This document shows, piece by piece, positions 39,646 to 63,564 of a stretch of 64,000 nucleotides of DNA. The first letter of the stretch is position 1; each line of letters opens with the position of its first letter. The DNA comes from Chitinophagales bacterium (GTDB lineage: Bacteria; Bacteroidota; Bacteroidia; Chitinophagales; UBA10324). A program made the translations under genes and the position numbers. Below the pieces are notes generated by a model that worked only from the letters and a program-made list of their open reading frames with translations, was not told the DNA's origin and did no database searches. Where the stretch lies: the NCBI GenBank assembly GCA_025056305.1, contig JANWWJ010000031.1, positions 66,861 to 130,860 of the forward strand, written 5' to 3'.

Positions 39646-40317
39646 CTATTTCATGTAGCGATAAAGCTGACCCGCCAGATAGCCTCCGGCCAGCGGCGCT
39701 ACGATGAACAGCCAAAGTTGGGCCAGCGCCCAGTCGCCTACAAATACGGCCTGACTGATACTGCGTGCCGGATTTAATGAGGTGTTGGTAATCGGTATGG
39801 TGATGAGGTGAATGGCCGTAAGAGCCAAGCCTATGGCTATCCCTGCAAACTCGCGGGGCGCACGCTCATCGGTAACGCTGAGCACAATGAACACAAACAA
39901 AAAGGTGAATACCAGCTCCGCGATCAATGCAGCCAATAGACTATATCCGCCGGGCGAATGTGTACCATAACCGTTGGCGGCAAAGGTGCCGATATCGCGG
40001 CCTGCCTGCGTCAACAGCACATAGAGCATGGTGGCAGCCACCAAGGCGCCGGCCACCTGAGCAGCTACATAAGGCAAGAGGTCGCGACTATTCAAGCGGC
40101 CGCCGGCCCATGCGCCGAGCGTAACGGCAGGGTTAAAGTGCGCGCCGGAAATGTGCCCCACAGCATAGATCATGGCCATGACAGCCAGTCCCACAGACAA
40201 CGATACCCCCAGAAATCCGATGCCCAGATCATCGAAACGACCGGAAATCAAACCACTGCCACAACCGGCCAACACCAGCCAAAATGTTCCGATAAATTCA
40301 GCAATGTTTTTTTTCAT
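39646..40317 (-). CDS. aqpZ: Aquaporin Z / MIP family channel
   Basis: Two NPA boxes (HFNPAVT and SLNPARS), 6 TM helices, and an AEFIGTFWLV start. Confidence 0.9.
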   Translation of the reverse strand: MKKNIAEFIGTFWLVLAGCGSGLISGRFDDLGIGFLGVSLSVGLAVMAMIYAVGHISGAHFNPAVTLGAWAGGRLNSRDLLPYVAAQVAGALVAATMLYVLLTQAGRDIGTFAANGYGTHSPGGYSLLAALIAELVFTFLFVFIVLSVTDERAPREFAGIAIGLALTAIHLITIPITNTSLNPARSISQAVFVGDWALAQLWLFIVAPLAGGYLAGQLYRYMK

Positions 40318-40579
40318 AACAATTTAAAAAATGCGTTAAACCAACAAACTTTTCCTTTTTTTAAGCACAGCGGTAATGAAGCAAAGTCGGCAGCAAACCC
40401 GATTGCAAGCAGAATGACCACCGCCATTGCCAAACCAACCACACAATGATTGTTCATCATCATTACTCATTTTTGGATCAAGAGAGCCTGCTCTATCCAA
40501 AATGACTTTTGGTACTGTTTGCTCGAACGAAGCGTTTTTCATCGCATTTAATTTCTGCTAAAAATAATAGGCTTTCTTT

Positions 40580-41515
40580 TTATCTGAATGTCACTGATTT
40601 GATGAGAAACAAGGCATACAAACAGAGGAACAGCATTCCTTCCCATGCCGAAACTTTTTTATCCTGCGTAAGCAGGTAAAACAACAGTCCGCTGGCCGCC
40701 ATCAGCGGCAGTGAAAACCCGACGATATCGTCCGTTATGTGCAGCGGACCGAACATCGTAGCTATGGGAATGATCATAGCTGAGTTGAAAATACACGAAC
40801 CCAGCACATTACCGATTGCCAGTTCTGCACGGCCCTGCCGCAAAGCCTGAATGTTAACGGCAAGCTCCGGCAGCGTTGTGCCCAGCGATAACATTGTCAC
40901 GGCCACCAAGGTGGCCGGCACTCCCAGGCCCAGGGCCACTTCCTGCAGTGCGCTGATGGCAAATTCGGCACTGAAGTAAATGCCGATGCAGGCCAGCACT
41001 AAAAGGCCCAAAGCACCGCTTGGAAAAGCTTTTTCTTCCGGCACTTCTTCGGCGCGGTTGGCCTCGCCCCGTACAATGTAAAGGGTGTACACGGCAAAAA
41101 TCACCATGCCGATAAACGATTCCAGAAATGTGATGGCTCCGTCATAAGCCAGAACCGACAGGAAAACGATACTGCCTATCATAAAATGCAGGTCAATATA
41201 CAGATAGCCGCTGCCCAGATATATGGTGCTGCCAACTAGAGCCGCCACCAGTCCGGTAATCAGCAAGAGATTAGCAATGTTGGCCCCCACCACATTGGCG
41301 GCCACCAACTCACTAACGCCCCGCTGGACACTCAGAACAGCCGTGACCAGTTCAGGCAATGATGTGCCCATGCCCACGATGAAGATGCCGGTGACCAACG
41401 GCGGCAATTGCAACCAATTGCCCAAGCGTGTAGCACCATGCATGAAGCCCCGTGCAGCATACACCAACACCACCAGTGCCGATGCGAAAACCACAAAGTC
41501 GAACAACAACTCCAT
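40580..41515 (-). CDS. Sodium/calcium exchanger family (CaCA, YrbG-like) membrane protein
   Basis: Two alpha-repeat motifs, GTSLPELVTAV and GTTLPELAVNI, in a 311-aa polytopic protein. Confidence 0.8.
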   Translation of the reverse strand: MELLFDFVVFASALVVLVYAARGFMHGATRLGNWLQLPPLVTGIFIVGMGTSLPELVTAVLSVQRGVSELVAANVVGANIANLLLITGLVAALVGSTIYLGSGYLYIDLHFMIGSIVFLSVLAYDGAITFLESFIGMVIFAVYTLYIVRGEANRAEEVPEEKAFPSGALGLLVLACIGIYFSAEFAISALQEVALGLGVPATLVAVTMLSLGTTLPELAVNIQALRQGRAELAIGNVLGSCIFNSAMIIPIATMFGPLHITDDIVGFSLPLMAASGLLFYLLTQDKKVSAWEGMLFLCLYALFLIKSVTFR

Positions 41516-43169: not shown

Positions 43170-45197
43170 ATGCTAAAAAAATTCGTGGTGTGCGGCAGCT
43201 TCATTCTAAGCTGCACTACCGCATTAGCACAAGCCACTTACTATGAAATGGTTCCCGGCACGATAAACCTGACCTGCCCACCACCCATCGGAGTTACTTA
43301 TTACGTCATTGACCCGGATATTTCCATTGCACCCCCGGGCCCGGGAGGCGATGCTCTATGCCCACCCAACAGCAACAGCGCACTGAATTATCAGAACAGC
43401 CTGGACATGATAACTACGGTCACCAATGCTCAGGGGTACTGCTTTCAGCTTAGCTTTCCGCTCAATGCAATGGGTTATTGCCCGAATGATACCTTGTGGA
43501 TCCACAATGGCCCCAGCACGGCCTCTCCGCTCTTGACCAGTCTGGTATGGGGCGCCAATGCCGGTTTTTGCACAAATAGCAACAGCAATCCTGCCGGCGC
43601 GCCCGCTACCACCACCGGCACCAGCGTTACGTTCCGGGTAAAAAGCGACGGCATCGACTCGCGCCGCGGGCATAACATTCAGTTAAGCTGCGTTACCTGC
43701 CCTTCGGCTCCGGCCAATAACGAATGCGCTGGAGCCATTCAACTTTCCCCTTCAGCAAACTGCGTTTATACCTCAGGAACTACCTTTTTGGCCACGCAAA
43801 GTTTACCGGGTTGCACCGGAACGGCCAACGACGATGTCTGGTATCGGTTCACGGCAAACAACACTACTCAAACCATTACGGTAGCGCCCACAACTGCTAC
43901 CATGGACCCTGTCATCCAGCTTTATAGCGGCAGTTGTAGTGCCTTGACCTCATTGTATTGCCAAAATGCCGGTGGGGTTAATGTAACCGAAACGCTCACA
44001 GCCACCGGTCTTAGTATAGGTGCCACCTACTACATTAGGGTTTATGATTTTGGAAACAATCCTAACACCAACAATTACAGTTTCAACATCTGTGTTGTAG
44101 GAGCATCAATCACTGACTGTGCAGGATCGGCACAAGTATGCGGCACGAGCAGCTTCTCTATGACCAACAGCGGCGTAGGACAGCAGGAACATAACGGAGC
44201 AACCTGGGGCTGTCTTGTAAGCGGCGAACACAGCTCGGCTTGGTATTGGTTCTCCTTTGCCACTGGTGGCACTTTTGAGTTTAATGCCGCCAGTGTCGGA
44301 GGCGTCTTCCAAGACGCTGACTTTGCCATCTGGCAGCCCACGAATTGTACCAATAAATGTGGAACCATAAATGTTGCTCCCACACGTTGCTCGTATGCCA
44401 CAGCTGCTGCCAACCCTCATCCTGCTCTGCCTCCTTATTCTACAGGCTGCTCTTTGTATGAAACCGCAGTTCAGACCACAGAAACAGCTGCAGGTGGTGG
44501 CGTGGTGCATGCCTATGTGAATGCATTGCCCGTAACAGCCGGCCAATGCTACGTGCTGCTGTTGGATATCTTCTCTGGCTCTGCTTCCTACACTATGAAC
44601 TGGACCTTAAGCGGTGGCGCCTCCTTCCAATCCTGCGTGCTGCCCATTGACCTGCTGTACTTTAACGGAGAAAACGTCGGCGGCATCAACCACCTATCGT
44701 GGGCTACGGCCACCGAACACAACAACGATTACTTCACCTTAGAGCGTTCGGCCGATGGAGAAGAGTTTACCGAAATTGCCCGCATCAGCGGCGCAGGCAC
44801 CAGCGTGGCCGTTACCCGTTATCAATGGCAGGATCGCTTCCCGTTGCCGGGTCTGAACTATTATCGCTTGCGCCAAACCGACAAAGACGGAGCCTATCAG
44901 TACACCGGTGTCATCCAAGTATATAACCCGAGAGCTTTGCCTTTGGCGCCGGTCATCTACCCCAACCCCAATGATGAAGGCATATATTATGTCAACCTGA
45001 AGACGGAAGATCCCACGCCGGTGCTGTTGACCGTCACCGATGCCTTAGGTCGCCTGCTGGAACAGCGCGAAACCACCTTCTGGGGCAGCGATGTGGAGCA
45101 GATCAACGTATCCGATCTGCCTTCGGGCACCTACTACCTCACGCTCACCGACCTGTACACAGGCATGCGCTACACCAGCCGGCTGGTGCGGTTTTGA
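43170..45197 (+). CDS. Secreted multi-domain protein with T9SS type-A C-terminal sorting domain
   Basis: Signal peptide (…ALAQA). Cys-rich modules with NNECAGAIQL...DDVWYRFTA (PPC-like pattern). The C-terminal roughly 90 aa (VIYPNPNDEGIYYV...LPSGTYYLTL) form the sorting domain. Confidence 0.7.
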   Translation: MLKKFVVCGSFILSCTTALAQATYYEMVPGTINLTCPPPIGVTYYVIDPDISIAPPGPGGDALCPPNSNSALNYQNSLDMITTVTNAQGYCFQLSFPLNAMGYCPNDTLWIHNGPSTASPLLTSLVWGANAGFCTNSNSNPAGAPATTTGTSVTFRVKSDGIDSRRGHNIQLSCVTCPSAPANNECAGAIQLSPSANCVYTSGTTFLATQSLPGCTGTANDDVWYRFTANNTTQTITVAPTTATMDPVIQLYSGSCSALTSLYCQNAGGVNVTETLTATGLSIGATYYIRVYDFGNNPNTNNYSFNICVVGASITDCAGSAQVCGTSSFSMTNSGVGQQEHNGATWGCLVSGEHSSAWYWFSFATGGTFEFNAASVGGVFQDADFAIWQPTNCTNKCGTINVAPTRCSYATAAANPHPALPPYSTGCSLYETAVQTTETAAGGGVVHAYVNALPVTAGQCYVLLLDIFSGSASYTMNWTLSGGASFQSCVLPIDLLYFNGENVGGINHLSWATATEHNNDYFTLERSADGEEFTEIARISGAGTSVAVTRYQWQDRFPLPGLNYYRLRQTDKDGAYQYTGVIQVYNPRALPLAPVIYPNPNDEGIYYVNLKTEDPTPVLLTVTDALGRLLEQRETTFWGSDVEQINVSDLPSGTYYLTLTDLYTGMRYTSRLVRF

Positions 45198-45315
45198 ATT
45201 TCGATTGGATTGATTTTTTCAGCTTCACTAAGTCCTTTCTTGAGGTACTCGTGAACAAAAACTTTCGCATACGGGGGACTTCTCGTCCTTGGTTACCTTG
45301 CAAAATTCAATAAAC

Positions 45316-45333
45316 GAAGGCTTTTAAGCCTTC
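45316..45333 (-). terminator. Hairpin directly after the last gene of the island
   Basis: GAAGGCTT-TT-AAGCCTTC abuts the TAA stop (45334-45336). On the minus strand it is followed by GTTTATT. The U-tract is modest. Confidence 0.45.
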
Positions 45334-46359
45334 TTATGTTTGAGATAAGCCTTCTTTTGCAGGAAGATACTTTTCGCTTGTTTGATTCGTAAGCAATTCC
45401 ATCCTTTTAATAAAAACTTCTCTCTGGCGCGATACAATCACATCGTAATCATCCTGCTGGTCAGCATATTTATTTACTAAAACAAATAATTCTATTGCAA
45501 AAAAAAATAAAAATAAGAAGAACCAAATAAATAAAGCGACAGCATTTGAGAGTAAAATCGAAAATAACACAATCAATTCGTCTAAAAAACCGGTTTTTGA
45601 TTTCAGCTCAGCCTCCAGGTTCTCCCGGATGGCAAAAAGTCTGTTTTCTGACTCTAACTTTTTATCACGTAGGATTTGTATTTGTTTTTCTAAATCATTC
45701 AGTCGTGCAATGTTTGGGTTTTCTATGTGTCGCGATTTTACGCGTCTTTCCGTAGCTACTCGTTTTCCGGCTGTGTCAATCACGTATTGTTGATCGACTT
45801 CATAAATTATTCTTGTAGGATTTTTCTCAATATCTTCACTTAATAATCTAACCTCGGCTTCTTTGATCATGATGGTCGAATCCAGGCTATTAATCTGAGC
45901 AACAAGTTCCTGGGTTTTTTGTGGAAGAATTTTATTGACCTCTTCTTGTATGTTGGAAATTTTTTTCTTTTCAACGTCCTCCTTGAAAAGCATCTGATCA
46001 ATGATTACCGAACCAATCACGGCCATGACAACACCAATTAATCCTCTGAATAAACCCGATATACTCGACCAAAACTTTTTTTGAGTAGATAGAATAATTT
46101 GTCTTTCGATGCTAATTACAATTATAATCATGATTAAAGCAACAGCCACGGATGTATATAAGTCTTCACGTAAGTATCTTTGCGCAAACGTGTAGCCAAT
46201 AAATCCCCATATGATACTAATTATAAGAATAGCAGCAAAATATTTTTTCACCGATTTAACGCTTGCCTCGCTACAGTTTTGTAGAATAAGGTAATTACGC
46301 CCCGTAATAAAGCAGCTTAGCCACAGAATAAAATCATTAATATATTTAGACATTTTCAT
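45334..46359 (-). CDS. DUF4407-like membrane protein (N-terminal TM helices, long central coiled coil, C-terminal TM segment)
   Basis: 341 aa. The N-terminus FILWLSCFITGRNYLILQNCSEAS..KKYFAAILIISIIWGFIGYTFA and SIERQIILS resemble my recollection of the DUF4407 signature. Hydrophobic stretches lie at about residues 40-60, 67-85, 102-124 and 268-300. Residues 125-265 have a heptad-like charged pattern (EEVNKILPQKTQELVAQINSLD...LEKQIQILRDKKLESENRL). Confidence 0.65.
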   Translation of the reverse strand: MKMSKYINDFILWLSCFITGRNYLILQNCSEASVKSVKKYFAAILIISIIWGFIGYTFAQRYLREDLYTSVAVALIMIIIVISIERQIILSTQKKFWSSISGLFRGLIGVVMAVIGSVIIDQMLFKEDVEKKKISNIQEEVNKILPQKTQELVAQINSLDSTIMIKEAEVRLLSEDIEKNPTRIIYEVDQQYVIDTAGKRVATERRVKSRHIENPNIARLNDLEKQIQILRDKKLESENRLFAIRENLEAELKSKTGFLDELIVLFSILLSNAVALFIWFFLFLFFFAIELFVLVNKYADQQDDYDVIVSRQREVFIKRMELLTNQTSEKYLPAKEGLSQT

Positions 46360-46368
46360 AAAACGTTA

Positions 46369-46935
46369 TTATGCCAATTCTGATTTTGTAATTGCAATCA
46401 ATCCTTGTTTAAAACCTCGCTCATACGATAGGATGACGTTTTCAAATAGCCCTGAATCGTTATTAATCTGATCTTCAATTTCTTTAATTCTGTTGATGTC
46501 TATCATTATTTTCTCTTTGTTCTTTTTAAGGTCTTGTACCGTATTATCTAAACCAGCCTTAGCCAACAAATCTATTTTAAGATCGATATCCTTTATTGCT
46601 TTTTCATATTCGCTAATTTCTTTCATTATTATGATTTTCACATTGTTCTTAAGAATCTTTATTCCATTTGCCATGTTACTTAAGTCTGAGTTAGTCAGAG
46701 CATCATGATATCCCATTGATTCGTAATTTCTATTAAGAAATGAATAAATTTTATCAATGCCTTTCGATTCTTCATTTGAAGAACTTATTGGTGGTAGTTC
46801 CTGAGGATCTCTTTTTTCAACAAAAACGTCCTCAGGGATACCGTTTTCTGCCGCGTTTCTTGTGATGTTATTTGCATTGTTATCGACAACGGTCTGGGGC
46901 TTATTTCTATTAAAAATCAGGTCAAAAAGTTTCAT
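46369..46935 (-). CDS. Hypothetical soluble protein: low-complexity N-terminus plus C-terminal coiled coil
   Basis: 188 aa with no TM segment. The first roughly 60 aa are N/P/E/S-rich. Residues about 95-165 are heptad-like (EISEYEKAIKDIDLKIDLLAKAG...KEKIMIDINRIKEIEDQI). No family recognised. Confidence 0.55.
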   Translation of the reverse strand: MKLFDLIFNRNKPQTVVDNNANNITRNAAENGIPEDVFVEKRDPQELPPISSSNEESKGIDKIYSFLNRNYESMGYHDALTNSDLSNMANGIKILKNNVKIIIMKEISEYEKAIKDIDLKIDLLAKAGLDNTVQDLKKNKEKIMIDINRIKEIEDQINNDSGLFENVILSYERGFKQGLIAITKSELA

Positions 46936-46957
46936 TATTTTAAATTTACGTTAATGA

Positions 46958-47269
46958 TTATTTTACATATTTAATGGGGACACTGTATAGTTTGTGTCCT
47001 TTGTAATGGCAGGTTTCGCAAAGGGTTATTAATAAGCGGTTGTCGTAATCCCATGGATGCTTAAACGTATTCAACGACATTGAAAAATGGTATTGCCTAT
47101 GATGAATATGCAAGCGCTGATCTGACTTACAAATTACACATTGATGGTTATCTCTGGCCAAAATCTCACTTCGCTTTGCTTTCCACCTTGGGTCAAGCAA
47201 AATTGTATCATAATTCTCGCGATAAAGGGGGCCCTGTTTAATAGAATCTAAGTAAAAATCGGTGTTCAT
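46958..47269 (-). CDS. Small stand-alone HNH endonuclease
   Basis: 103 aa. WKAKRSEILARDNHQCVIC(C44,C47)...LHIHH(H56,H57)...DN(N77)RLLITLCETCH(C84,C87,H88). This gives the full CxxC...HH...N...CxxCH zinc-finger HNH signature. Confidence 0.75.
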   Translation of the reverse strand: MNTDFYLDSIKQGPLYRENYDTILLDPRWKAKRSEILARDNHQCVICKSDQRLHIHHRQYHFSMSLNTFKHPWDYDNRLLITLCETCHYKGHKLYSVPIKYVK

Positions 47270-47379
47270 GATAAAAGGTGTTTGCTAATATAAAAACTTT
47301 ACTCAGTGCACTCGCCTCAAATGCACTTGTGTTAATGAAAATAAATCAGCTCCGCCCAAAAATTCGTTGATCATCATGC

Positions 47380-47850
47380 TCAGGCTTTCTTCAGCTCTTC
47401 CTCCCAATCGTCTTTTTCGGGATGACTTTTCATATAGGCATCCATAGACCAAGGCCCTGAACCTTCCACCAGGAAGAAAAGCAACAGAAACAGCACCATG
47501 ATGGAAAACCACAGCTCTGTGGAATTAGCCGAGAAAAAGCCGGTTTTGGCGTTAACAAATACTACGGCGCCGATCAGGATGGGCAACTGGAATAAGATGG
47601 CCAAGCGCGTCAGCAAGCCTAAGGCAATCATGGCGCCGCCGATCAAGTGGGCAAACACCACGTAGTGAGCCAGCCAGAAGGAAACCTGACCGAAGCGACT
47701 GTTTTCGATGATCTGCTTCACCCCTTCAGTGTTGCTGATGAAAACATATCCTTTGCCTAAGATGATAAGTCCCAGCAAAATGCGCAGCAGATCGAGCCAT
47801 TTGGGGTGATGGCGGTCGCCCCACTCTTCGATGCGTTTAATGAGGTTCAT
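47380..47850 (-). CDS. DoxX family membrane protein
   Basis: 156 aa, 4 TM helices, with LLRILLGLIILGKG and HLIGGAMIALGLLTRLA typical of DoxX. Confidence 0.7.
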   Translation of the reverse strand: MNLIKRIEEWGDRHHPKWLDLLRILLGLIILGKGYVFISNTEGVKQIIENSRFGQVSFWLAHYVVFAHLIGGAMIALGLLTRLAILFQLPILIGAVVFVNAKTGFFSANSTELWFSIMVLFLLLFFLVEGSGPWSMDAYMKSHPEKDDWEEELKKA

Positions 47851-50410: not shown

Positions 50411-51262
50411 TCAGTTTCCCCCAATGCGAAGCAGCCGCATGTGACCCGAAAAGTCGCGACGAAATTCATAGGGCAATTTTTGAAGCGTCAACCACTGATT
50501 CAGGGGCTCATACAGTCTGGGGTTGATTTCAAAAAACAGCACTGCCTTGTTTTCACTTGCAATGAAAAACTTTTCGGCAACATGTCGGTAAAAGATCAAA
50601 GGGTCAGGGGCAGGGGCAAACAATGCCACATGAGGTTCGTGTTTCATTACATGTTCATCCAGGGTGTGCTGCTCTGCGGCCAATACATAGGGTGGGTTGC
50701 AAACCACACAATCGAAAGAAATATGCGGGAAAGGACGTTCTGCTGATAGCAGGTCGTGTTGGGCAAAGGTGATGTCAAGGCCATGTGCGTTGGCATTGTG
50801 TCGGGCTATTTCTAAGGCTGCTTGGCTGATGTCAACGGCAAAAATGTGCAGGTGGGGTAACCGACGTTTTAAGGCCAGCGCAATGCAACCAGAGCCGGTG
50901 CCGGCATCAAGCACATGGGCAGCAGTCTTTGTGTGAAGTTCATCAGCAACCCAATGCACCAGCTCTTCTGTTTCGGGTCGAGGGATGAGCACGGCTGGCG
51001 AAACCCGCAGCTTCATGCCGTCGAAATGGGCATAGCCGATTACATACTGGACCGGTTCTCCCCTTTGCAGCCGGATGAGGGCCTTAACTGCGGCATCCGC
51101 TTGGTGAGGCAAGATGGGCCGATTGCCATGAATCGATGGGATGAATGGCTCGATCCCACTGACTGCCTCAACCACCAGCCTGCCGATGGCTGCAGCTTCG
51201 CCTTCGGCATAGAGGGATTGCAAATGTTTGCGTAGGCTATGATAAACCTCTGCAACAGTCAC
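50411..51262 (-). CDS. prmC: Release-factor glutamine N5-methyltransferase PrmC (HemK)
   Basis: EPVQYVIGYAHF, LIPRPETE, SAM motif VLDAGTGSGCIAL, and catalytic NPPY. Confidence 0.85.
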   Translation of the reverse strand: MTVAEVYHSLRKHLQSLYAEGEAAAIGRLVVEAVSGIEPFIPSIHGNRPILPHQADAAVKALIRLQRGEPVQYVIGYAHFDGMKLRVSPAVLIPRPETEELVHWVADELHTKTAAHVLDAGTGSGCIALALKRRLPHLHIFAVDISQAALEIARHNANAHGLDITFAQHDLLSAERPFPHISFDCVVCNPPYVLAAEQHTLDEHVMKHEPHVALFAPAPDPLIFYRHVAEKFFIASENKAVLFFEINPRLYEPLNQWLTLQKLPYEFRRDFSGHMRLLRIGGN

Positions 51263-51637
51263 AACAGGAAATTACGGGTGGATTTTTTACACACATATCC
51301 CAAGGCGCCGAATGGCATGTTGACGAAGTCAGAATCAAGATTTTCGGTTTATACATTTTTGAGGGATCAAGGCGCTTTTGCTATTTGTTTGTGGAAAAAT
51401 ATTTCTGTCTTGAGAGAAAATTCAAAAATTCAGAAGGCGCATAATTTGTGTAGGGATAGCCGACAGAATTTTATTTTGATCGGTGAATTGATCTCTGCAT
51501 CTTCATTACGTTGAGATCTAGCACGGAGAAGTTTCATTAGTGATTTCTTCATAAATCATTTGTCACGACATCAGGTTATTTTTTCCGAACCGTTGCGCAA
51601 AATGCTTTCAGCTTAAGCGCCAACCTACATTTGCTGC

Positions 51638-52657
51638 ATGCATGAGCTGTTTTTGCGCCGATGTCTGCAATTAGCCCTTCGGGCAGCCGGCCATACGGCT
51701 CCCAACCCTATGGTGGGGGCTGTTATCGTGTACGACGGACGGATCATAGCCGAAGGTTGGCATCGGCGTTACGGAGGGCTCCACGCCGAAGTTGAGGCTA
51801 TTGAGTCGGTAAGCCACCGAACTGTCTTGCCTCAGAGCACCCTTTACGTAAATCTGGAACCGTGCTGTCATTACGGTAAAACACCTCCTTGTACCGATCT
51901 GATTCTTCGCAGTGGAATACGCCACATTGTGACCGGCCCCGCCGACCCCTCGCCAGAAGTAGGCGGAAAAGGTTTTGAGCAGTTACGTCGGGCAGGCTGT
52001 ACGTTGTTGACCGATGTACTGGCTCAGGAATGCAAACAGCTCAATTGCCGCTTTTACACTTTTCATGAGAAAAAAAGACCTTATGTAGTGTTAAAGTGGG
52101 CTCAGTCGGCTGATGGTTTTATAGGCAAAATGGGTAAGCGCACGACTATAAGTGGCATGGTGGCTCAAATCATGGCCCATCGCTGGCGCAGTGAAGAAGC
52201 CGCCGTGATGGTCGGCACACAAACCGCGTTGGTGGACAACCCCCGACTGACGGTCCGCCTGTGGAAAGGTCATCAACCCTTACGCATTGTGGTGGACCGC
52301 CAAGGCCGACTGCCACATACTCTCAACCTTTTTGACGGCAGTGCCAGCACCTTGTTGATCACCGAAAACCCGATGGCGCGGCCGCCCCATGCTGAAGTGC
52401 TCCAAATGGCATTCGGCTGCTTGCTTCCCGACCTGATGAAAGAGCTTTGGCAGCGGCGCATCCTTTCACTGCTGGTTGAAGGTGGCGCACGTTTGCTACA
52501 ATCTTTCATCGACATGAACTTATGGGATGAAGCCCGTGTTCTCGTGAGTCCCGTCCGTTTAGGAAATGGAATAGCTGCACCGCGAATCTTGAATGCTGTG
52601 CATAGTGAGCATGCCCTGTATCCCGACAAATTATTGATCTATAAAAATCCGCTATGA
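51638..52657 (+). CDS. ribD: Bifunctional riboflavin biosynthesis protein RibD (deaminase/reductase)
   Basis: PNPMVGAVIV, HAEVEAI and the LEPCCHYGKTPPC zinc motif, plus a C-terminal reductase domain (VVLKWAQSADG, LLVEGGARL). Confidence 0.9.
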   Translation: MHELFLRRCLQLALRAAGHTAPNPMVGAVIVYDGRIIAEGWHRRYGGLHAEVEAIESVSHRTVLPQSTLYVNLEPCCHYGKTPPCTDLILRSGIRHIVTGPADPSPEVGGKGFEQLRRAGCTLLTDVLAQECKQLNCRFYTFHEKKRPYVVLKWAQSADGFIGKMGKRTTISGMVAQIMAHRWRSEEAAVMVGTQTALVDNPRLTVRLWKGHQPLRIVVDRQGRLPHTLNLFDGSASTLLITENPMARPPHAEVLQMAFGCLLPDLMKELWQRRILSLLVEGGARLLQSFIDMNLWDEARVLVSPVRLGNGIAAPRILNAVHSEHALYPDKLLIYKNPL

Positions 52658-60007: not shown

Positions 60008-62392
60008 ATGAACACTAAACAAGGGGTTCTGCTGTGCCTGCTGCTGAAAAGCACCTTTTTTTGTTTTGGCCAAAATTTCAATCTAACGTTTCGCGATCAG
60101 GTTACTTATCCCTACACATGCGCCAGTATTTGGGGTTATTACACTAACGGACGGGAATATGCCTTAGTGGGGACTTACGAGGGAATTTCGATTGTCGACG
60201 TTACCGACCCCGACAATGCTGTGGTCTTATTTGACGTGAAACATAATGGGGCATTCAGCTTCTGGCGTGAGGTAAAAACATGGCAGCATTATGCCTATGC
60301 TACCAATGAGGAAAACAATGGCTTGCTGATCGTTGACCTTCAAAACCTGCCGAATTCTATCCAACAATATCAGTTTATTTACCAGGACGCCAACGGCAAA
60401 AAGCAAACTACCGGCCATACCTTATGGATTGATGAAAAAGGCAGATTGTTTGTTTTCGGAGGTAACTATGCACAAGGTTATACCTGTTTTGACCTTACGG
60501 CCGACCCGCTCAATCCAACATATTTGGGCAAGTACAGCCAACATTATATCCATGATGGATTTGTGAGAGGTGATACGTTGTGGGCTTCCGAAATATACGA
60601 TGGCATATTGCGCATTATGGATGTAAGCAATCCCGCAGCACCTGTGGTGTTAGCCGATGTGCCTACGCCAGGAGCATTTACGCACAATGCATGGCCAACT
60701 TCTGACAACCGATATGTATTTACCACCGACGAGGTGACCAACAGCTATATCACGGCCTACGACGTCAGCGATTTGAGCAACATCACCGAGGTAGATCGGG
60801 CTCAAGCGCATCCGGGAACCGGCAGCATCGTACACAATGTTCATTTGTATAACGATACTTTTCTCGTAGCGGCTTATTACCGTGACGGCGTGGTTATTTA
60901 TGATGTCAGCGATCCGTCGAACATGGTTAAGGTAGCCGAATACGACACATATGCGGGTTCGGGCAGCGGATTTAATGGCACCTGGGGGGTATATCCGTGG
61001 TTTCCTTCAGGAACTATTGTTGCCTCCAACATTGAAGATGGTTTATTTGTGCTAACCCCCCAATACATACCTGCAGCACGGCTCCAAGGCACTGTTATGG
61101 ATGCAAACAGCGGGGCTCCTTTATACAATGCTACCGTAAGCATTTTAGGTGCTTCGATCACTGAAACCACCGACCTGAGTGGATTTTACAAAACAGGCGT
61201 CGCTGGCAGCGGAACATTTACAGTCGAAGTGTGGCGTTCAGGCTATCAAACGACTACCATTTCCAATGTGGTGCTTTCAGCCGGCAGCACGACTGTGTTG
61301 AATGTGGCTCTAGTGCCCGTAGCCACAGCTCTGGTAAGCGGTTGGGTGCTGGATTCGGTTACCAATCAACCTATTGCTTCGGCCAGCGTACGCTTGAGTG
61401 GCACTGCAGGAACTAACTACGAGACAACGACTGATGCTTCAGGTGCTTTTTCCGTATTCGCGTTGTACGACACTTATAGCATCTATGCTGGGAAGTGGGG
61501 CTACCGGGAAAAAGGAATTTACACTTACGTGGCTGATGCCAACAGTCAGCCGGTGACCTTATTGTTGCGGAAAGGATACTACGACGACTTTGTGGTGGAT
61601 CAAGGATGGTTGGTAAGCGGTGGAGCAACTACCGGCAAATGGGTTCGGACGAAGCCTATTGGTACTTATTTGTTCAATGTGCCTTATAATCCCGACAAAG
61701 ACATTGATGGCGATTGGGGAGATGACTGTTATGTTACCGGAAACAATGTCAGCGATCCTAATTCCATAGGAGAAGATGACGTCGATAACGGCATAGTTAA
61801 CCTCACTTCTCCTGTTATGAACCTGAGCAATTATGGCGATCCGGTGATTCGCTTCTATGCATGGTTTGCCAATGGTGGGGGCATGAGCCTCCCTAATGAC
61901 ACGCTGCGCGTCTCTTTATCAGACGGAACGCAAATGATTCATGTATTGAAAATCCATGCCAACAACTTTCCGATGCATCAATGGAACTATCATGAAATTC
62001 ATGTTGCAAATTATTTGAATGCATGGGACAATGTTACCATTCGTTTTCAGACCAGCGATCTACAAAGCAGCGGTCATGTTGTAGAGGCAGGCATTGATTA
62101 TTTCGGCGTGTACGATGCCTTGGCCGTTGGTCAACAGCTTACCACCAGCGCCACAGTTCGAATTTATCCAAATCCTGCCGACCGGTTTTGCAGGATCGTC
62201 AGCGGTCCTCATCAGAAAATAAAATCGATTCGGTTGTATGATTTATGGGGCCGAAGGGTAGCCCATGTGGTTTGTGACCACAGCCAACCCGCATTATCTA
62301 TACCCTTACAGGGTTTATCTGCTGGTAGTTACGTTTTGGAATGCGAAACAGAGGAGGAACTCGTACGGCATCCGCTGTTGATTTGCCGGTAA
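60008..62392 (+). CDS. LVIVD-repeat / choice-of-anchor-B-like secreted protein with carboxypeptidase-regulatory-like domains and T9SS CTD
   Basis: Signal peptide. A beta-propeller-like N-terminal half carries LLIVDLQN and ISIVDVTDP (LVIVD repeats). It has two CarbopepD_reg-like segments (GTVMDANSGAPLYNATVSI; GWVLDSVTNQPIASASVRL) and a C-terminal VRIYPNPADRFCRI...LSAGSYVLE sorting domain. Confidence 0.75.
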   Translation: MNTKQGVLLCLLLKSTFFCFGQNFNLTFRDQVTYPYTCASIWGYYTNGREYALVGTYEGISIVDVTDPDNAVVLFDVKHNGAFSFWREVKTWQHYAYATNEENNGLLIVDLQNLPNSIQQYQFIYQDANGKKQTTGHTLWIDEKGRLFVFGGNYAQGYTCFDLTADPLNPTYLGKYSQHYIHDGFVRGDTLWASEIYDGILRIMDVSNPAAPVVLADVPTPGAFTHNAWPTSDNRYVFTTDEVTNSYITAYDVSDLSNITEVDRAQAHPGTGSIVHNVHLYNDTFLVAAYYRDGVVIYDVSDPSNMVKVAEYDTYAGSGSGFNGTWGVYPWFPSGTIVASNIEDGLFVLTPQYIPAARLQGTVMDANSGAPLYNATVSILGASITETTDLSGFYKTGVAGSGTFTVEVWRSGYQTTTISNVVLSAGSTTVLNVALVPVATALVSGWVLDSVTNQPIASASVRLSGTAGTNYETTTDASGAFSVFALYDTYSIYAGKWGYREKGIYTYVADANSQPVTLLLRKGYYDDFVVDQGWLVSGGATTGKWVRTKPIGTYLFNVPYNPDKDIDGDWGDDCYVTGNNVSDPNSIGEDDVDNGIVNLTSPVMNLSNYGDPVIRFYAWFANGGGMSLPNDTLRVSLSDGTQMIHVLKIHANNFPMHQWNYHEIHVANYLNAWDNVTIRFQTSDLQSSGHVVEAGIDYFGVYDALAVGQQLTTSATVRIYPNPADRFCRIVSGPHQKIKSIRLYDLWGRRVAHVVCDHSQPALSIPLQGLSAGSYVLECETEEELVRHPLLICR

Positions 62393-62808
62393 CCTCTGAG
62401 CAATCAACAAAATAAAATCGGTGGAAAGACACTCATGTGCGTGGGTGGATATTCAGATAATATGAGGTGGGCATAGCATGTGAATCAATGCCTGTAAAAA
62501 GCAAGAGATAAATTTTTTCTATCATCCTCAAAGTGCTTTAAATGAATGCTGACGATTAGTTAAAATCGGATTAATATTCCGGCTTGTAAAATCATTGCCC
62601 GCTTATGCAAGTAACTTGTTTTGGAACTGTCAACCCTGCCCAACTAAGCCGTTGAATTGCTCAGTGCGCGCACACAGTTCACAGATAATTAGGTGTGCAC
62701 TAATCGATGGCTTAAATGGCATCCAGAGTCTGTATCCTGGCAACAAACAGATTTAAGTTTTTCATTAAACAAGCTTATCCTTTATTCGGTTTAACGTATC
62801 TCACTCAT

Positions 62809-63564
62809 TCAGCCATAATTTTCGGAGACCTGCTGCCAGTTGACTACCTGCCACCAATCTTTAAGGTAGTCAGCACGGCGGTTCTGATGTTTGAGGTAAT
62901 AGGCGTGTTCCCATACATCTACGCCAAGAATGGGCTTACCTTGTTGCGCAACTATATCCATCAATGGATTGTCCTGATTAGGTGTAGTGGTGATCATCAG
63001 TCGGCCATTTGCGTCTTTAATGAGCCATGCCCAACCCGAACCAAAGATGCCCAGAGCCGCCTTGTTAAACTCTTCTTGAAATCGCTCCACGGACTCCCAG
63101 GTTGCCAGGAGGGCATCGCGCAGGCGACCTTGGGGTGCCGTTCCGCGTTGCGGGGACATGACCTTCCAGAAGAAAGAATGATTCCAGTGACCTCCACCAT
63201 TGTTACGTACTGCAGTGAAAATGTTTTCCGGAACCTTACTCAAGTTATTCATCAGATGATCGATGGAACTGTGCTGCCATTCCGGTGCATTGAGGAGGGC
63301 CTTATTTAAATTATCTACATAAGATCGGTGATGCCGATCATGGTGGATCCGCATGGTTTGTGAGTCTATATAGGGCTCCAAAGCTTCGTAGGCATAAGGT
63401 AAGGCTGGCAACTGAAAGTGAGGGTGATGTTCGTGTGCATGTATGTCTTCGTTCTGAAAGGGGCGAGCGGGCCATTTTGCCGAGATAGCTGGAACGGCCA
63501 CCGCCAATAATGCTGAACTTTGCTTGAGAAAAGCGCGACGTGTGAAGGATTTTGCCGTTTTCAT
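62809..63564 (-). CDS. sod: Fe/Mn superoxide dismutase with twin-arginine signal peptide
   Basis: N-terminal TRRAFLKQSSALLAVAV (Tat motif). The SOD motifs are LPYAYEALEPYID..TM.IHH.RHH, GGGHWNHSFFW and DVWEHAYYL. Confidence 0.92.
   Translation of the reverse strand: MKTAKSFTRRAFLKQSSALLAVAVPAISAKWPARPFQNEDIHAHEHHPHFQLPALPYAYEALEPYIDSQTMRIHHDRHHRSYVDNLNKALLNAPEWQHSSIDHLMNNLSKVPENIFTAVRNNGGGHWNHSFFWKVMSPQRGTAPQGRLRDALLATWESVERFQEEFNKAALGIFGSGWAWLIKDANGRLMITTTPNQDNPLMDIVAQQGKPILGVDVWEHAYYLKHQNRRADYLKDWWQVVNWQQVSENYG

Follow-up and report, generated by a model that had tools for sequence, protein, structure and literature searches.

How does a single block of AT-rich DNA come to lie between two convergent genes of a bacterial chromosome, and what might its genes do there? 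We addressed these questions for an island at positions 45198 to 47379 of a 64,000-nt stretch from a Chitinophagales bacterium (assembly GCA_025056305.1, contig JANWWJ010000031.1, positions 66,861 to 130,860); the whole of this stretch is called the window. A previous sequence-only reading had described the island as an old or unconventional horizontal insertion with hairpin-marked borders and no mobility gene, for example cargo left by a decayed element. We find instead one intact, closely packed operon of three genes, which encode a small HNH endonuclease, a helical protein that we name MID and a membrane protein of the DUF4407 family. Taken as a whole, the locus is best explained, and we lean modestly towards this account, as a lineage-specific gain of a conserved operon that is a candidate conflict or defence system. 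The features that carry the argument are the following.

43170..45197, plus strand: left flank, host gene for a protein with a type IX secretion system (T9SS) C-terminal sorting domain; 88% DNA identity through the stop codon to L086, the closest relative with an empty site.
45198..47379, no strand: low-GC island of 2182 nt, bounded by the stop codons of a convergent pair of host genes.
45316..45333, minus strand: intrinsic terminator hairpin directly 3' of the DUF4407 stop, with a 7-bp stem, a 4-nt loop and a T-rich tail on both strands.
45334..46359, minus strand: gene 3, DUF4407 (PF14362) membrane protein of 341 aa, assigned by Pfam, alignment and AlphaFold2 (AF2) model.
46369..46935, minus strand: gene 2, MID (name coined here), 188 aa, of no Pfam family; characterised by profile search, alignment and AF2 model.
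46958..47269, minus strand: gene 1, small HNH endonuclease of 103 aa, assigned by PHROG and NCBIfam matches and by motif.
47380..47850, minus strand: right flank, host doxX; 89% DNA identity to L086 through the stop codon.

The composition of the island is foreign and has not been ameliorated. Its 2182 nt have a G+C content of 34.5%, compared with 49.5% in the rest of the window (z = -7.0 relative to all other 2182-nt windows of the stretch), and they form the only stretch longer than about 700 nt in which G+C stays below 42%. The tetranucleotide distance from the window norm is likewise large (z = 11.9), so that both sliding-window and k-mer statistics place the island outside the normal variance of this DNA. 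Codon usage follows the same pattern, with G+C at third codon positions (GC3) of 0.31-0.41 in the three island genes and 0.53-0.66 in six neighbouring genes. A deviating composition of this kind, evident here in G+C, tetranucleotides and GC3, is a general mark of horizontal islands. The drop sets in just past the TGA of the T9SS-cargo gene (45195-45197) and ends at the doxX stop (47380), and the hand counts behind the original report of a sharp compositional change were reproduced exactly on recount (35% at 46381-46440, 30% at 46501-46560 and 56.7%, formerly rounded to 57%, at 44701-44760). Smaller dips to 41-42% G+C occur at 40201-40800, 51201-51700 and 62301-63000 and in five further 500-nt stretches; the first two, the only ones inspected, fall in gaps between long open reading frames (ORFs), and none of the minor dips matches the island in depth or length. 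Within the island itself the only ORFs are three on the minus strand, with 22 and 9 nt between them.

Relatives of the locus were located by searching with the flanking DoxX protein, and three were compared: GCA_033583955.1 (DoxX 96% identical; locus L086, the closest), GCA_053487875.1 (86%; L087) and GCA_035638255.1 together with a JGI contig (71%; L090/L091). All three carry PrmC, H+-PPase and DoxX on one side and one or more T9SS-cargo genes on the other, as in the window, and in the two closest relatives FloA and NfeD lie beyond the T9SS-cargo gene or genes. In each of them doxX and the T9SS-cargo gene converge upon a spacer of only 118, 76 and 110 nt, respectively, and the 2182 nt that separate these genes in the window have no counterpart in L086. 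Alignment to relatives thus finds the junction empty in three genomes with conserved gene order, and absence at the same site in relatives is a second general mark of a horizontal island. Because the outgroup with 71% DoxX identity also has an empty junction, the island is best read as a gain in the window lineage, and we regard the horizontal gain of a single operon as very probable.

Two further observations concern the origin and age of the insert. In a neighbour-joining tree of DUF4407 proteins, which is approximate and carries no support values, the window copy falls in a group with L002 and L089 (65% identity), both unplaced and of metagenomic origin, and this group next joins copies from Bacteroidales, far from the clades found in Chitinophagaceae genomes. 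Since the window copy nests with Bacteroidales-type rather than Chitinophagaceae copies, a foreign origin of the module is favoured, and the tree indicates a transfer between orders, probably from a low-GC donor. Hence the horizontal part of the first interpretation stands on empty junctions, foreign composition and phylogeny. Its description of the insertion as old is unsupported, because the composition shows no amelioration and a relative with flanks 88-89% identical at the DNA level lacks the island; the insertion appears to be fairly recent.

The cargo of this insertion recurs throughout the Bacteroidota. A DUF4407 profile scan restricted to one genome per species yielded 80 loci, essentially all from this phylum, and 80 further loci were collected from metagenomes of the Joint Genome Institute (JGI); in the latter set, arrangements were counted wherever upstream sequence sufficed. 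MID lies directly 5' of DUF4407 at 79 of 81 genome loci and at all 67 metagenome loci so counted (146/148 combined), and an HNH gene of the window type lies directly 5' of MID at 40 of 81 and 31 of 55 loci, respectively. Median gaps are 10 nt between HNH and MID and 4 nt between MID and DUF4407. A 1-Mb replicon of Persicobacter carries this trio too, with stop and start codons that overlap, at a DUF4407 identity of only 28%. When the DUF4407 tree is rooted on the Persicobacter copy, HNH looks like an ancestral component of the module that has often been lost, with at least three losses at clade level. Identities between the window and L002 are similar for all three proteins (61% for HNH, 57% for MID and 65% for DUF4407), which points to co-inheritance of the three. 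We therefore consider it highly likely that HNH, MID and DUF4407 constitute a co-functioning three-gene module, in which MID and DUF4407 form the obligate core and HNH is a conserved yet dispensable third part.

Some metagenomic sequences add to this picture. Two 495-aa protein clusters from JGI metagenomes (P0042 and P0055) are natural fusions in which MID occupies the N-terminal part and DUF4407 follows, which is compatible with a DUF4407 N-terminus in the cytoplasm and with direct contact between the two proteins. Contigs that carry DUF4407 homologues show a bump in length at 2.0-2.3 kb (15 of 120 contigs, compared with 5 and 4 in the adjoining 300-nt bins), and small DUF4407 contigs have been binned to implausible taxa, among them Nitrosotenuis, Methanosarcina, Saccharibacteria, Chloroflexota and Gammaproteobacteria. 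Both observations fit mis-binned assembly fragments of cassette size. A small circular element was considered on account of the length bump and was rejected, as no contig has terminal overlaps. A plasmid origin was likewise set aside, the sole hit being the distant copy on the Persicobacter replicon.

The first gene of the operon had been overlooked when the island was said to lack a mobility gene: there is indeed no integrase or transposase, but this gene is an intact HNH endonuclease. Its product matches PHROG 119 (E=4e-14) and another 14 HNH PHROGs, as well as the HNH part of the NCBIfam IscB model (E=3e-5), while Pfam HNH models remain below threshold. The zinc-finger ββα-Me motif is complete (CxxC...HHRQYHF...PWxY...TLCxxCHxxGH), with the CxxC...HH...CxxCH signature expected of such nucleases, and its zinc-binding and catalytic residues are invariant across 40 loci.

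MID is not significantly matched by any family model in Pfam, NCBIfam, PHROGs or PADLOC. Its sequence shows 100% identity to that of a protein from a Chitinophagales metagenome-assembled genome. A word-indexed search returned a single other homologue, on contigs of 1-2 kb with the same three genes in the same order, and an exhaustive profile search (hmmsearch) recovered 318 cluster representatives. The AF2 model, built from 50 sequences, is a five-helix bundle spanning residues 60-187 with a predicted local distance difference test (pLDDT) score of 97-99, preceded by an N-terminus that is predicted to be disordered and begins with a conserved MGLFxFF. Foldseek comparison of this model with folds in the PDB gave nothing below E=0.29, and neither MID nor DUF4407 had any match when PDB sequences were searched with profiles.

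The third protein is a full-length member of DUF4407, with a Pfam match that covers profile positions 2-296 of 297 (E=6.8e-40; 137.6 bits compared with a gathering cut-off of 31.3). About four transmembrane (TM) helices are predicted, together with an antiparallel coiled coil of ~130 residues that is capped by a β-hairpin. In the AF2 model (33 sequences; all-helical; pLDDT 71, predicted TM-score, pTM, 0.40), membrane helices span residues ~31-62, 67-91 and 98-122, and the third extends as a helix to residue 179. It is followed by a β-hairpin at 182-213, a return helix at 216-254, a hydrophobic helix at 258-299 and a C-terminal helix. Family-averaged net charge is +4.2 at the N-terminus, +1.2 in loop 2 and -1.5 in the segment after TM3, and the positive-inside rule accordingly favours a topology in which both termini would be cytoplasmic and the coiled coil would form a periplasmic stalk. 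The invariant polar residues of the alignment are E85-R86-Q87, D121-Q122, D260-E261 and E290; all of them lie at or in the predicted membrane helices, the first two groups at helix ends and E290 within TM4. This pattern would be typical of ion-coupled or gated membrane proteins. In the PDB, Foldseek found nothing below E=0.03 and returned only generic proteins with a coiled coil and a β-hairpin, such as V-ATPase subunit D and prefoldin. The literature on PF14362/DUF4407 describes no function for the family and mentions it in gene lists, and neither the partnership with MID nor the linkage to HNH appears in any description of DUF4407 in Pfam that we found; the literature searched likewise contained no characterisation of DUF4407 or of the trio.

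A possible role for these proteins is suggested by the company that the module keeps. The neighbours of the 80 genome loci were clustered and annotated. HSDR_N nuclease-like proteins are encoded no more than two genes from the module at 5-8 loci, Cas6b lies immediately 3' of it at 4 loci, and Cas10 (3 loci), WYL regulators (4 loci) and type I restriction R (REase, 2 loci) and S subunits occur within two genes. A 648-aa AAA_15/AAA_21 ATPase with a small partner, which also matches the AriA, NsnB and HEC models, is found near the module at 4 loci. At E<=1e-5, 150 random near neighbours matched 236 PADLOC families, compared with 123 for 150 genes more than 7 kb away. The commonest Pfam families near the module are those of restriction, CRISPR and HTH proteins, and those of the far set are kinase, TPR and housekeeping families. 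This context is suggestive rather than decisive. Overall, a role of the module in conflict or anti-phage defence is a serious possibility that falls a little short of probable.

In 12-13 loci from Sphingobacteriaceae, Flavobacteriaceae and Chitinophagaceae (array loci L048, L049, L051, L052, L053, L055, L056, L064, L065, L070, L079, L081 and L085), the operon belongs to a series of small variable genes that all point the same way. The series follows a TPR histidine kinase/response regulator pair, which is accompanied by a divergent 247-aa gene of no known family, and the whole takes up the ~8 kb 5' of the module. Among the products of the series are a zinc-ribbon protein, DUF4236, a 109-aa family and nuclease-like proteins of the HSDR_N type. 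The arrangement resembles a conserved variable island with a two-component system as its anchor.

If the module does act in defence, one could imagine the following mechanism. DUF4407 would be an inner-membrane protein whose coiled-coil stalk reaches into the periplasm and senses disturbance of the envelope or membrane, for example during entry of phage DNA. Its polar transmembrane core would then pass the signal on to MID, the helical partner in the cytosol, and the output would be DNA cleavage by the small HNH nuclease. Variants that lack HNH might act instead by abortive infection at the level of the membrane. This specific chain of sensor, adaptor and nuclease is doubtful as it stands.

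Several observations weigh against a role in defence or against parts of the wider account. The immediate neighbours of the module are mostly housekeeping genes, and the far control set holds defence genes too. The enrichment in defence genes is modest, its control consists of genes from the same loci rather than from whole genomes, and some of the loci are related. In several Bacteroidales clades the pair without HNH sits in a conserved gene order, like a stable gene. Searches of PADLOC-DB v2.0.0, which includes Zorya, Kiwa, Rex and the PDC/HEC candidates, gave matches to the window proteins only at E>0.006, and 50 MID and 33 DUF4407 family members showed no consistent match to any PADLOC model. 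Both proteins are also without a match among PDB sequences or folds, and no function is assigned to them by homology or by experiment. The DUF4407 model is only moderately confident by the scores given above, and the topology depends on the positive-inside rule. Lastly, the borders of the insertion cannot be placed, the spacers of L086 and L087 being too diverged to align with the flanks of the window or with each other (z<1.3).

It could also be that MID and DUF4407 form an accessory module for envelope or membrane maintenance, active in stress, transport or the cell envelope, with HNH being incidental. The stable gene order of the HNH-less pair extends to several Chitinophagaceae clades as well as those of Bacteroidales, and the adjacent housekeeping genes encode such proteins as thioredoxin, an AMP-binding enzyme, an aminotransferase and a MacB-type permease. 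In Riemerella, a published list of PhoP-regulated genes includes one for DUF4407, and the G+C content of the module usually equals that of its host (mean difference -0.01 across loci). However, an incidental HNH gene is difficult to reconcile with a linkage that is ancestral and tight (~10-nt gaps), and maintenance of the envelope does not account for the recurrence of defence genes in the immediate neighbourhood or for a module that is present or absent among close relatives and has been transferred between orders. On this evidence, a purely envelope-related function is unlikely.

Alternatively, the island might be a selfish homing or addiction cassette. Its HNH enzyme would cut empty sites, repair of the break would copy the operon, and MID and DUF4407 would be passengers or a stabiliser akin to a toxin-antitoxin pair. 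A clean intergenic insert that has conserved genes on both sides and lacks repeats, a recombinase and a target-site duplication is indeed the signature of intron-less homing; the nuclease falls in phage HNH families, and the module is patchy in distribution and compositionally foreign in several hosts. Yet selfish homing endonuclease genes usually decay and change neighbours, and a homing cassette typically consists of a lone nuclease gene that often decays and sits in a phage, an intron or an intein, whereas this HNH is linked to the same two partners, with strong conservation of its motif, from Persicobacter to Bacteroidales. Moreover, half of the modules have no HNH, so that it is not required for maintenance, insertion sites vary by lineage and share no common target sequence, and homing leaves unexplained how the cassette first arrived from a donor with unrelated flanks. 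A homing cassette is therefore improbable, and the gain of a conserved operon with a candidate role in conflict or defence remains the account that we prefer.

There is very little chance that the locus was ancestral and was deleted in the relatives, or that it reflects a chimeric join in a metagenome-assembled contig. The source contig does come from a metagenome-assembled genome, and the sole independent contig that matches this flank exactly, a Logan contig identical to the window (L001), breaks off at 47288, 18 nt ahead of the HNH ATG, and does not cross the junction. An exact search of JGI metagenomes with a 26-mer across 47277-47302 gave no match, and exact-sequence look-ups of the island proteins and of the T9SS-cargo protein returned no further contigs. 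Nevertheless, the short spacer is found in three relatives of increasing distance, up to the outgroup, both composition and phylogeny indicate a foreign origin, and a chimera would require two precise mis-joins within one intergenic spacer with the host gene order intact on both sides. Contig ends near the borders of the cassette occur elsewhere: L088, from a relative, terminates within the 3' end of doxX, and the contigs with the nearest cassettes, L002, L004 and L005, come from three samples and start at one common base. Such breaks may reflect strain heterogeneity in the presence of the island, a flanking repeat in the lineage concerned or a drop of coverage in AT-rich DNA.

A prophage or lysis-cassette remnant, with DUF4407 as a holin-like membrane protein (a weak, sub-threshold match to a holin PHROG, E=0.089) beside an HNH of the phage PHROGs, is effectively refuted by the lack of any DUF4407 relative in 2.9 million IMG/VR contigs (searched with the single protein and the profile) or 50,697 phage genomes (INPHARED/GenBank), by flanks of host rather than phage genes and by the intact state of the operon.

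How the operon entered this site can be approached from its borders, where three further features lie.

45257..45265 and 47292-47300, plus strand: left and right copies of the 9-mer AAAAACTTT, at chance level.
47270..47314, minus strand: putative operon promoter and 5' leader, of which ~45 nt upstream of the HNH ATG are weakly alignable to L002, a length too short for a significance test.
47305..47327, minus strand: hairpin AGTGCA...TGCACT, 52 nt 3' of the doxX stop and followed by a T-run.

Both hairpins had been taken as marks of the borders, and both exist at the positions reported, but they appear to be ordinary terminators of transcription units rather than element ends. The hairpin at 45316-45333 (GAAGGCTTTTAAGCCTTC; -11.8 kcal/mol, z = -3.1, with a T-run following) is the terminator of the operon, given its position at the DUF4407 stop and its T-rich tail. 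The one at 47305-47327 (-11.8 kcal/mol, z = -2.1) is probably the terminator of doxX, and it could belong either to the host or to the insert. The shared 9-mer, which had been recorded with the caution that it could be due to chance, is present in both places. As a candidate target-site duplication it was rejected: its P is ~0.045 on shuffling both flanks, it occurs four times in the 64-kb window, and a shared string of at least 9 nt is found in ~26% of mismatched pairs of 200-nt flanks from other loci. Over 70 loci, matched and mismatched flanks hardly differ in the length of the shared k-mer (8.13 and 7.92, respectively; p=0.046). On the right side, the weak similarity to L002 just 5' of the HNH ATG may mean that the promoter came along with the operon, which would put the border somewhere from about 47314 to 47379.

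No vehicle was found for this movement. The flanks hold no integrase, transposase, tRNA or long terminal repeat, as had been noted at the outset, and the window contains no ORF for an integrase, transposase or recombinase. There is no tRNA within 6 kb of the island, no Rfam match in its flanks and no long direct or inverted repeat around it, so that the integrase, tRNA or att site and direct repeats of a classical integrase-borne island are all lacking. With regard to integron cassettes, the 3' hairpin is by inspection a simple 7-bp terminator and the window has no integrase ORF, although no attC-model search was made. The suggestion that the island is cargo left by a decayed element is thus not borne out, as we find no integrase, transposase or insertion sequence (IS) remnant around what is one intact packed operon. 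Conserved element ends were sought 5' of HNH across 38 loci and rejected, since nothing is shared there and long inverted or direct repeats are absent. The operon would therefore seem to move as bare DNA with its own promoter and terminator and without a recombinase, and its most likely route into this neutral spacer, which runs from terminator to terminator, is illegitimate or break-repair recombination.

A different arrangement is seen in L089, the closest relative of the window cassette, which is flanked by a perfect 138-nt inverted terminal repeat (L089:1-138 and L089:2122-2259). It is made up of an IS end and the 3' end of a DDE transposase gene (...YNYHRPHKALNYQTPIDLL and stop), and one of the IS copies removes the first ~16 codons of HNH. 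The genes may be bracketed in the manner of a composite transposon, or the assembly may have collapsed on the IS; IS-mediated mobilisation thus seems to occur in the module family, as L089 exemplifies. An IS was rejected as the vehicle of the window island, in which there is no match to the L089 IS end or transposase and no transposase ORF; bracketing IS copies, the mark of a composite transposon, are seen only in L089. A segment of ~30 nt that includes the exact 15-mer CCCGCCTTTCTTTGC (L002:3-17 and L089:2097-2111) is located 76-45 nt 5' of HNH in L002 and ~125 nt 3' of DUF4407 in L089, a cassette 88% identical to L002. A flanking direct repeat, a tandem copy and a permutation are all conceivable.

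Other sharp islands of low G+C with the same operon occur in hosts of higher G+C. In L054 (0.30 compared with 0.52 G+C) the operon alone lies between genes for PPK2 and a thioesterase, and ~440 nt of low-GC DNA with no long ORF precede HNH. L162:4548-8148, from a human gut metagenome, is an island of 0.31 compared with 0.46 G+C, and L121, L146 and L116 are additional examples. Some members of this set carry 1-2 kb of additional low-GC cargo.

Among known systems, the module can be compared most closely with Zorya type II, in which a ZorA/ZorB membrane complex with a long coiled-coil tail is accompanied by the HNH nuclease ZorE. Both operons pair a coiled-coil inner-membrane protein that has acidic residues in the membrane with a small HNH protein, and the module, like Zorya, is found near defence genes and would seem to move horizontally without a recombinase of its own. 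However, the module proteins do not match the PADLOC models of ZorA, ZorB or ZorE, there is no MotB/OmpA-like partner that binds peptidoglycan, and the second protein is a soluble helical bundle. Furthermore, the DUF4407 stalk is an antiparallel hairpin with a β-hairpin cap and is predicted to be periplasmic, whereas the Zorya tail is cytoplasmic. RexAB and Kiwa (KwaA/KwaB) resemble the module as obligate pairs of a multi-pass membrane protein and a soluble partner encoded just upstream, and in many genomes the MID-DUF4407 pair is likewise present alone. They differ in that no homology to them is detected, in the ancestral attachment of HNH to the module and in the long coiled-coil ectodomain of DUF4407, which is found in neither RexB nor KwaA. 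The resemblance to Zorya, Rex and Kiwa would thus be one of design rather than of family, as the module proteins do not match the profile models of these systems.

Two kinds of mobile DNA also invite comparison. Like the free-standing HNH homing genes of phages, the island has a small phage-type HNH gene in a repeat-free intergenic insert that is absent from close relatives, but the window module is chromosomal, the DUF4407-bearing trio was not found in the phage collections, and an HNH of the window type is tied to two specific partners over deep divergence. Classical islands and composite transposons share with it a foreign composition and presence or absence among relatives, and L089 is bracketed by inverted IS copies; the window differs from them in having no integrase, tRNA target, direct repeats or IS remnant.

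As a type of island, this small insert without an integrase is ordinary, and it is the identity of the cargo, missed in the earlier reading, that is of interest. MID and DUF4407 are without functional annotation, have no relative among solved structures or folds and are absent from PADLOC, although their linkage is among the tightest in this analysis (146/148 loci, and fusions) and CRISPR-Cas, restriction and Abi-type genes lie nearby. To regard the HNH-MID-DUF4407 operon as a candidate for a new membrane-anchored defence system is reasonable but unproven. The pair of filled and empty sites described here provides a concrete case in which to study how defence operons might move without a recombinase. 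A broader proposal, of an immune system present throughout the Bacteroidota that has escaped recognition, in which a sensor with a periplasmic stalk, a helical adaptor and either a minimal HNH or abortive infection are encoded in a ~2-kb operon that moves without a recombinase, is tentative and rather unlikely as a whole. If the module should nevertheless prove to be a true immune system, it would represent an envelope-anchored sensor of a new fold that joins Zorya, Kiwa and Rex among membrane-based defences, and it would add a new defence to the Bacteroidota, a phylum that is important in gut and environmental microbiomes and whose defences are under-explored.

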